Shown: positions 1,925 to 2,485 of the stretch, piece after piece
How positions within the stretch are numbered: position 1 is the first letter of the stretch
Layout of the letters: the number at the start of each line of letters is the position of its first letter
UHGV virus genome: UHGV-0148165
DNA: 64,000 nt
DNA from: a virus
Direction: 5' to 3' (one strand)
Notes under the pieces: generated by a model
Databases searched by the model: none
Seen by the model: the letters and a program-made list of their open reading frames with translations, nothing else
Told to the model about the DNA's origin: nothing
Translations under genes and position numbers: made by a program

Positions 1925-2485
1925 ATGATTAATAAAATTGTGCATGAAATGGCTTTAAACGGAGATTCATATAAAATATCTGCCGTAGTTGAAAATTTCA
2001 TACTTAATAAAGTAAAAGAATATTTCACTGATTGTTCAGTTAGTTATCAAGAAAAAATGGTTTTAACCGATGATACTGAAAAATCAAATAATTTGTTTTG
2101 TTCTAATTTTATAACTAAGAAGCGTACTAGAAGATTTGATATTGTTATTTCTCGCAACGGTAAAAAGCATATAATTGAAATTAAACACCAAGTTGGTGGA
2201 GGTACAGCTATTGATTCGGTTGGAATATATTTAGAAGATAAAGAGAAATTAAAAGAATACACAAAAACTGAAAACCCTGTGTCATTGATGATATTAGATT
2301 TTTTGCCATGCGGATATTATCCACGTAATAAATGGACAAAAAGAGAATCATTTACTGATAATCCAACTATCCAAGCAAGGTTTAATGAATATGCTAAATC
2401 ACAAAACGTGTTAGTATTACTATCAAATACATATGATGAAGAATTGTATAATTCATTTTTTGCTGCAATAAATGAGAGAATATAA
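1925..2485 (+). CDS. hypothetical protein, 186 aa, translationally coupled to dam; possible PD-(D/E)xK-like nuclease motif
   Basis: ATG 1925 after GAGGA; stop overlaps dam start (TAATG); segment [21 protein letters not shown] has D-x13-E-x-K spacing. Confidence 0.5.

Follow-up and report, generated by a model that had tools for sequence, protein, structure and literature searches.

The virus genome UHGV-0148165, analysed as a window of 64 000 nucleotides (nt; the whole stretch of DNA, to which all coordinates refer), carries an open reading frame (ORF) of 186 codons, here called ORF186, immediately upstream of the methyltransferase gene dam. These two genes probably constitute a compact, phage-borne type II restriction-modification (R-M) cassette, with ORF186 as the restriction (R) half and dam as the modification (M) half. 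The narrower claim that ORF186 is a Dam-linked nuclease of the PD-(D/E)xK superfamily, predicted from its sequence and a structural model, is made with greater confidence than the R-M reading as a whole. Recognition of GATC is proposed with less confidence than that reading, as the most probable specificity. The principal features are:

1925..2485, + strand: ORF186, predicted PD-(D/E)xK restriction-endonuclease-like protein of 186 amino acids (aa) with an ATG start (phrog_8706)

2485..3264, + strand: dam, D12-class N6-adenine methyltransferase, presumed cognate M gene (PF02086, 5e-51; TIGR00571, 8e-70)

1838..3263, + strand: cassette of promoter, ORF186 and dam, a single 1,426-bp (base pair) insertion or deletion relative to T6

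ORF186 is a real gene under constraint. The 186-aa reading frame described in the first-pass annotation is intact, starts with ATG and ends with a TAA (2483–2485) that has one base in common with the dam ATG (2485–2487), giving the TAATG overlap that had also been described. The translation matched PHROG 8706 (function unknown) from end to end (6e-116), and tblastn found it in 189 phage records, near full length in 155; public records name the family 'hypothetical protein' throughout. Comparison with two Tequatrovirus alleles gave 14–15 synonymous and 3 non-synonymous differences, with a ratio of non-synonymous to synonymous substitution rates (dN/dS) of 0.045–0.049, while the homologue in the Dhakavirus MX01 (63 % protein identity) gave a dN/dS of 0.19. 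The dN/dS of ORF186 is similar to that of dam. A spurious ORF was rejected on the basis of these ratios and of conservation. Literature searches, whose coverage of subscription journals was thin, found no paper describing ORF186.

A PD-(D/E)xK-like motif with D-x13-E-x-K spacing had been reported for this protein from the sequence. The motif itself was confirmed but the spacing was not, the actual arrangement being D72-x12-E85-x-K87. In a nine-sequence alignment of homologues down to 29 % identity, E23, D72, E85 and K87 were invariant, as were the fixed positions of a longer stretch that begins at K87. This invariance indicates that the motif is no chance match. The corresponding positions are:

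1991..1993, + strand: codon for the acidic residue E23, invariant and located in helix 2, the first core helix (model helix 15–33)

2138..2140, + strand: codon for D72, the predicted catalytic aspartate, invariant and located in strand 2 (model strand 67–77)

2177..2185, + strand: codons for E85-I86-K87, the predicted catalytic (D/E)xK, with E85 and K87 invariant and located in strand 3 (80–88)

2183..2218, + strand: stretch of invariant columns K87-H-Q-x3-G-T-A-I-D-S98, a candidate DNA-recognition element

ORF186 is thus predicted to have the catalytic signature of the superfamily, with a conserved acidic position on strand 2 followed by (D/E)xK on strand 3. Profile searches matched ORF186 to Pfam DpnII with an E value of 0.0045 (16.8 bits against a gathering threshold of 23; residues 28–113 against positions 152–235 of the 278 in the profile), to Pfam BanI with an E value of 0.009 and to the PADLOC type II restriction endonuclease (REase) model with 9e-5. 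When nine family members were scanned singly, DpnII matched four of the nine (best E value 8.3e-5) and PADLOC REase_II matched three (best 5e-6), and all the DpnII and REase_II matches cover the catalytic core of ORF186. By Pfam's criteria ORF186 falls outside the DpnII/MboI family (PF04556), since its score is below the gathering threshold and only part of the profile is aligned, and no MunI or EcoRI Pfam match was obtained for the ORF186 family at E≤1. Two pieces of ORF186, ExKHQ and G-x-A-I-(D/E), resemble EAKHQ...GNAIER of EcoRI (a fragment verified against the PDB). However, an hhalign comparison of the ORF186 profile with this fragment aligned eight columns with an E value of 0.074 and was not significant, so the resemblance is anecdotal and a lead at most. 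Scans of ORF186 against Pfam, PHROGs and NCBIfam yielded none of the homing endonuclease signatures (GIY-YIG, HNH, LAGLIDADG, His-Cys box). Confident homology to a non-nuclease family, named beforehand as the outcome that would speak against a nuclease, was not found in Pfam, PHROGs, NCBIfam, PADLOC or the PDB.

The fold of ORF186 is predicted to be that of a restriction endonuclease. An AlphaFold2 model based on a six-sequence alignment (mean predicted local distance difference test score, pLDDT, 80.3; predicted template-modelling score, pTM, 0.79) contains the canonical alpha-beta-beta-beta-alpha-beta core of the PD-(D/E)xK fold, in agreement with the nuclease-like protein suggested earlier. 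The BFVD model of the MX01 homologue, which was predicted independently, superposes on it with a template-modelling (TM) score of 0.92. The nearest structural relatives are alpha-class enzymes of the MunI/EcoRI type, to which the modelled protein shows close similarity over the whole domain. Alpha-class restriction enzymes leave 4-nt 5' overhangs. They have been described as reaching DNA from the major groove (PMC4081073).

Association with a methyltransferase gene is constant across the family. Each homologue that could be placed lies directly 5' of a gene for a D12-class Dam, comprising those of MX01, the metagenomic loci L008–L011, L005, the Klebsiella phage KPV15 (Jiaodavirus) and the two most distant members, L006 and L007; at L005 the ORF that follows is incomplete and aligns to Dam with 50–64 % identity. 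R and M either share 1 to 35 nt at their junction or are directly contiguous, except in T2 where a 1-nt deletion produces a 13-nt gap. In Tequatrovirus, Dhakavirus and L008 the pair is flanked by primase/dam.1 on one side and gene 56 on the other, whereas in KPV15 it follows rIIB and an endonuclease gene and in L007 it immediately precedes a 756-aa rIIA-like gene. The partnership with a GATC methyltransferase and the coupled gene arrangement, both claimed in the first-pass annotation, are thus conserved in the homologous loci, with a D12-class Dam 3' of all homologues examined in three unrelated contexts. Adjacent genes for a predicted endonuclease and a methyltransferase are inherited together, as in type II R-M systems. 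Sequence identity falls off more quickly among R proteins than among M proteins (for example, 44 % vs 63 % and 57 % vs 72 %), which is usual in R-M pairs. The dam gene of the window has 97.5 % DNA identity to that of T4, which the T4 record annotates as GATC-specific.

The family is small and the contexts recovered for it were T4-like phages in all cases. A full hidden Markov model (HMM) scan of 1.84 billion cluster representatives gave 11 matches, fragments or chimeras among them. No relative was detected in motif scans of 185 579 species genomes from bacteria and archaea or in a plasmid motif scan, and a scan of IMG/VR gave no new family members; a scan of JGI metagenomes added three loci, all of known types. 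Three database entries (P0008, P0010 and P0016) were left aside as they look like chimeric or repetitive assembly products: one has an epimerase N-terminus fused to the C-terminus of ORF186, another has asparagine-synthetase-type Pfam domains with only the last ~30 residues from ORF186, and another is a 765-aa tandem-repeat translation. Six plasmid loci with the nearest plasmid-borne relatives of the phage Dam (35–43 % identity; L012–L015, L031 and L032) were all of two-methylase or fused-methylase type. An annotated AlwI-family (GGATC) endonuclease is carried by four of the six and a large unannotated ORF is present instead in the other two; a DpnII-type system was found in none of these six loci.

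The cassette is a discrete mobile unit, and the linkage of ORF186 to dam is obligatory. The window derives from a Tequatrovirus, and its first 4 kb, apart from bases 1–50, are 99.4–99.6 % identical to genomes such as that of Shigella phage SHFML-11. The gene order is gene 61 primase (601–1629), dam.1 (1626–1826, minus strand), ORF186, dam and the gene 56 dCTPase. T6 aligns to positions 1401–1837 and then straight to 3264–3600, and has neither ORF186 nor dam; RB69 has the same empty configuration. GC content is 27.7 % in the cassette (27.5 % in ORF186, 28.6 % in dam) against a window mean of 35.4 % (sd 2.5), and no other 1,426-nt stretch of the 64 kb has a GC content as low. Two further features relate to natural variation in the cassette:

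1858..2397, + strand: segment missing in T4, containing the promoter and codons 1–158, with an 8-bp direct repeat ATCACAAA at 1850–1857 and 2398–2405

2465..2470, + strand: run of six T residues near the 3' end of ORF186, of differing length among isolates, with effects on the C-terminus and the dam overlap

The earlier suggestion to look for an orthologue between genes 61 and dam in T2, T4 and T6 gave a different answer in each. T2 has the gene with an altered, frameshifted C-terminus, T4 has only its last 87 nt and T6 has neither gene. T4 aligns to 1504–1857 and then to 2398–2599, with 8 nt in common at the junction, such that a deletion of roughly 540 bp has removed the 5' 85 % of the ORF while an 87-nt 3' relic and dam are kept. 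The T run at 2465–2470 has five T residues in T2 and T4. The T2 allele ends in LLQ and the ES19 allele in CCNK; the ES19 C-terminus presumably arose by a change in the same run, which could be slippage-prone or a sequencing artefact. The surrounding region is present at ≥90 % identity in ~535 phage records, of which ~181–184 have this dam. Both ORF186 and dam occur in ~149 records and a T4-like state, dam with an R remnant, in ~35, while ORF186 without dam was found at none of the loci inspected. A decayed R gene beside an intact dam recurs as the T4 deletion, the T2 frameshift and a fragment in Bas37. The M gene is thus found alone and the R gene never, a pattern expected from the decay of an R-M pair.

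Other arrangements were observed at sites of this kind. In the Klebsiella phage KP179 (L027), a different gene pair (10492–12792) lies just 5' of dam, at the site occupied in KPV15 by the ORF186 homologue. This pair consists of a 210-aa protein (weak Hjc-like PD-(D/E)xK match, E value 7e-4; D-x12-D-x-K) whose gene overlaps that of a second D12-class methyltransferase, and may represent another R-M-like module that occupies this hotspot but is unrelated to the first. Small ORFs over the start of the solitary dam in KP15 and RB49, and a 79-aa ORF in KPV15, were considered and rejected as relics of ORF186.

The first-pass annotation also gave ORF186 an early-type promoter of its own, and this claim is supported by comparison with homologous loci. 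The elements upstream of the start codon are:

1870..1899, + strand: early-type promoter, with −35 box GTTTAC (1870–1875), an 18-nt spacer, TG (1891–1892) and −10 box TATTAT (1894–1899)

1877..1917, + strand: inverted repeat with arms at 1877–1884 and 1910–1917, the 3' arm containing the Shine-Dalgarno (SD) sequence GAGGA and the loop containing the −10 box

A consensus scan of this AT-rich region gave 10 promoter-like sites against 13.1 in shuffled sequences, that is, no enrichment. However, an exact GTTTAC with a −10-like box 17–18 nt downstream recurs 5' of the homologues in MX01, L008/L010, KPV15 and T2. Since these boxes are kept where the surrounding DNA has diverged, they are taken as real evidence for a sigma-70/T4-early-like promoter of ORF186 at 1870–1899. 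The ribosome-binding site, GAGGA (1913–1917), is located 7 nt 5' of the ATG. The inverted repeat folds as RNA with −12.1 kcal/mol (z=−2.7), and its 5' arm sits between the −35 and −10 boxes. The 5' arm would be absent from transcripts that start at the promoter of ORF186 itself, whereas in read-through transcripts the ribosome-binding site would be concealed, which points to a possible regulatory role. Hairpins of different sequence that pair with the SD occur upstream in MX01 (L017), L008 and KPV15 (L002), with modest z-scores, and in L007 the −10 box is surrounded by a 14-bp hairpin (z=−5.1).

These observations suggest the following scheme for an R-M cassette. Just after infection the cassette would be transcribed from its own early promoter, and ORF186 and Dam would be translated from one mRNA by means of the overlapping stop and start codons. 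By analogy with MunI or EcoRI, ORF186 would most likely act as a homodimer, bind Mg2+ through E23, D72, E85 and K87, and cut a short palindrome, most probably unmethylated GATC, while Dam would methylate phage DNA at these sites and thereby protect it from cleavage. GATC is proposed because the partner is close to T4 dam, because weak similarity to the DpnII core was found repeatedly and because the structural relatives are of the alpha class. A Dam-positive enterobacterial chromosome would already be protected, so that the likely targets are GATC-unmethylated DNAs in the infected cell, namely co-infecting phages without dam, fast-replicating and under-methylated plasmid or prophage DNA, and dam-deficient hosts. 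The cassette could also favour its own retention, as an R-M addiction module. The ~540-bp deletion would have destroyed the R gene of T4, which suggests that the solitary dam of T4 is the leftover of a phage-borne R-M pair.

Several points weigh against this reading. The DNA of enterobacterial hosts is Dam-methylated and the glucosyl-hydroxymethylcytosine of phage DNA blocks most restriction enzymes, so the natural substrate is not obvious. T2 dam mutants are viable according to the older literature, which argues against lethal self-restriction, a point qualified by the frameshifted C-terminus of the ORF186 allele in T2. The DpnII link falls below the Pfam threshold (16.8 vs 23 bits) and covers the core only, and a sequence and profile search of PDB chains gave only designed repeat proteins with E values >0.2. 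The enzymatic role is deduced from sequence and a model for a protein that carries only a 'hypothetical' annotation in public. Lastly, the distribution of GATC is not that expected if depletion were due to the cassette: RB69, which belongs to the same subfamily and has neither dam nor ORF186, is the most GATC-depleted phage, with an observed/expected ratio of 0.13.

In the window, and likewise in other phages with the cassette, no 4-bp palindrome is more depleted than GATC; the window has 77 sites where 215 are expected, a ratio of 0.36. Ratios in other phages with the cassette were 0.18 for KPV15 and 0.29 for L024, and the MX01 and L008 loci contain 0 and 1 GATC sites against 12 and 13 expected, respectively. 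No depletion was observed in RB49 (1.07) and KP15 (0.99), which have solitary dam genes and infect the same host genera. Across the Tevenvirinae the ratio ranged from 0.13 to 0.47. The value for RB69 indicates a trait of the Tevenvirinae as a whole that is not creditable to ORF186, and GATC avoidance was rejected as specific support for the specificity of ORF186. A published alternative is that host MutH selects against unmethylated GATC (PMC5014478, citing Deschavanne and Radman 1991). The depletion is compatible with, and no demonstration of, a GATC-directed conflict among these phages.

Three other explanations were weighed against a type II R-M pair, together with one further-reaching reading. 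ORF186 could be an active nuclease that is not a methylation-sensitive restriction enzyme, acting instead as a DNase against the host or competitors or as a recombination or repair nuclease. Such an enzyme might discriminate, for example, cytosine from hydroxymethylcytosine, and its linkage to dam would reflect co-regulation or shared ancestry. This is unlikely, although it is given the most weight of the three. The further-reaching reading, also improbable, is that the cassette is an inter-phage weapon of the T-even group and that ORF186 cuts unmethylated GATC even in hydroxymethylcytosine DNA. ORF186 would then destroy or convert co-infecting relatives without dam, which is missing from about two thirds of Tequatrovirus records; a solitary dam such as that of T4 would be a 'cheater' immunity gene kept by lineages that lost the nuclease, and GATC depletion would be the scar of phage–phage restriction and not of host mismatch repair.

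A non-cutting protein derived from a restriction enzyme is considered quite improbable. It would be a decoy, or would work alongside Dam as a DNA-binding or regulatory partner that sets the expression, specificity or processivity of the methyltransferase. In favour of this, coupled translation suggests that ORF186 and Dam are made in a fixed ratio, the inverted repeat overlaps both promoter and SD, and an active ORF186 would rank among the smallest type II restriction enzymes. However, strong purifying selection has kept all four of the predicted metal-binding and catalytic residues unchanged, although such residues are usually lost when a nuclease homologue becomes inactive, and in T4, where the ORF is missing, Dam functions by itself. 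The inverted repeats also vary in sequence from one cassette to another, as would be expected of an RNA structure more than of an operator bound by a protein. The least probable of the three, and a sub-case of the R-M reading, is a mainly selfish mobile element comparable to the free-standing homing genes that T-even phages carry. In mixed infections, relatives without the cassette would be cut by ORF186 and would acquire the cassette through recombinational repair, with any benefit to the phage being secondary. Such an element would account for the sharp-edged presence/absence polymorphism within one genus, the different cassette sites between genera and a GC content that is the lowest in the window, and T4 has the homing endonuclease gene segF in the same region. 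Against this, no homing endonuclease family was matched, apart from short AT-rich similarity at the cassette ends neither a target site nor a duplication was identified, and Dam acting in trans would protect competitor DNA as well.

As an R-M system, ORF186-dam would probably be a classical type II pair in function and architecture, novel in sequence and unusual in its carrier, a virulent phage with hypermodified DNA. The MunI/EcoRI-type (alpha-class) type IIP enzymes are nearest to ORF186 by modelled structure, but identity is only 12 %, their carriers are bacterial and not a virulent phage, and the recognition-motif residues of ORF186 are T, D and S where those enzymes have N, E and R. These substitutions indicate that the target should not be of AATT type. 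The DpnII/MboI systems with DpnM are nearest by partner and by weak sequence similarity, as the partner methylase is, like the window dam, of the D12 Dam class (GATC by the T4 annotation). PF04556 (DpnII) belongs to the PD-(D/E)xK superfamily (PMC3424549). In contrast to these systems, ORF186 is about 100 aa shorter and the cassette has no second, DpnA-like methylase. The nearest precedent for a lytic virus with a GATC system is R.CviAI/M.CviAI of the chlorovirus PBCV-1, a virus-encoded R-M pair (A579L with A581R) with an early-expressed methyltransferase gene (PMC7248222). That virus is a eukaryotic giant virus with an unrelated gene order, activity is established there and predicted for ORF186, and no sequence relation was detected between ORF186 and the chlorovirus enzyme. 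The seg/mob homing genes of T-even phages resemble the cassette as optional, polymorphic, AT-rich insertions between conserved genes, but have a GIY-YIG or HNH fold as opposed to the predicted PD-(D/E)xK fold of ORF186, which is always accompanied by a protecting methyltransferase.

The reason for a non-essential GATC methyltransferase in T2 and T4 is a decades-old puzzle, and T4 Dam is the textbook 'orphan' enzyme. A passage in a 2025 review likewise places it among orphan phage methyltransferases (PMC12707154). In T4 the gene is solitary with an 87-nt relic of the partner, whereas the same gene in the window has its partner upstream. If the R-M reading is true, dam entered the T-even phages as half of an R-M cassette and the reference strain T4 is a deletion derivative that hides this origin, with T2-like phages, T4 and T6 representing three natural states (both genes, methylase only, and neither). 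The R-M reading would further establish a very small family of restriction enzymes with novel sequences, and would show that a virulent phage whose DNA is hypermodified can carry a restriction system of its own, with a bearing on phage–phage competition and the design of therapeutic cocktails.

Two minor observations concern the flanking DNA. The dam.1 gene is a 66-codon ORF (phrog_2024) named dam.1 in T6 and ORF029w in RB69 and unannotated in the T4 record; it is kept beside the primase gene with or without the cassette. A minus-strand promoter-like site for dam.1 (1874–1847) lies inside the cassette and has its −35 region in common with the ORF186 promoter. Bases 1–50 of the window, which we take to be the Illumina Nextera i5 adapter (GATCTACAC, index GTAAGGAG and TCGTCGGCAGCGTCAGATGTGTATAAGAGACAG), resemble an untrimmed adapter at a contig end and not phage DNA, and all phage matches start at base 51 or later.
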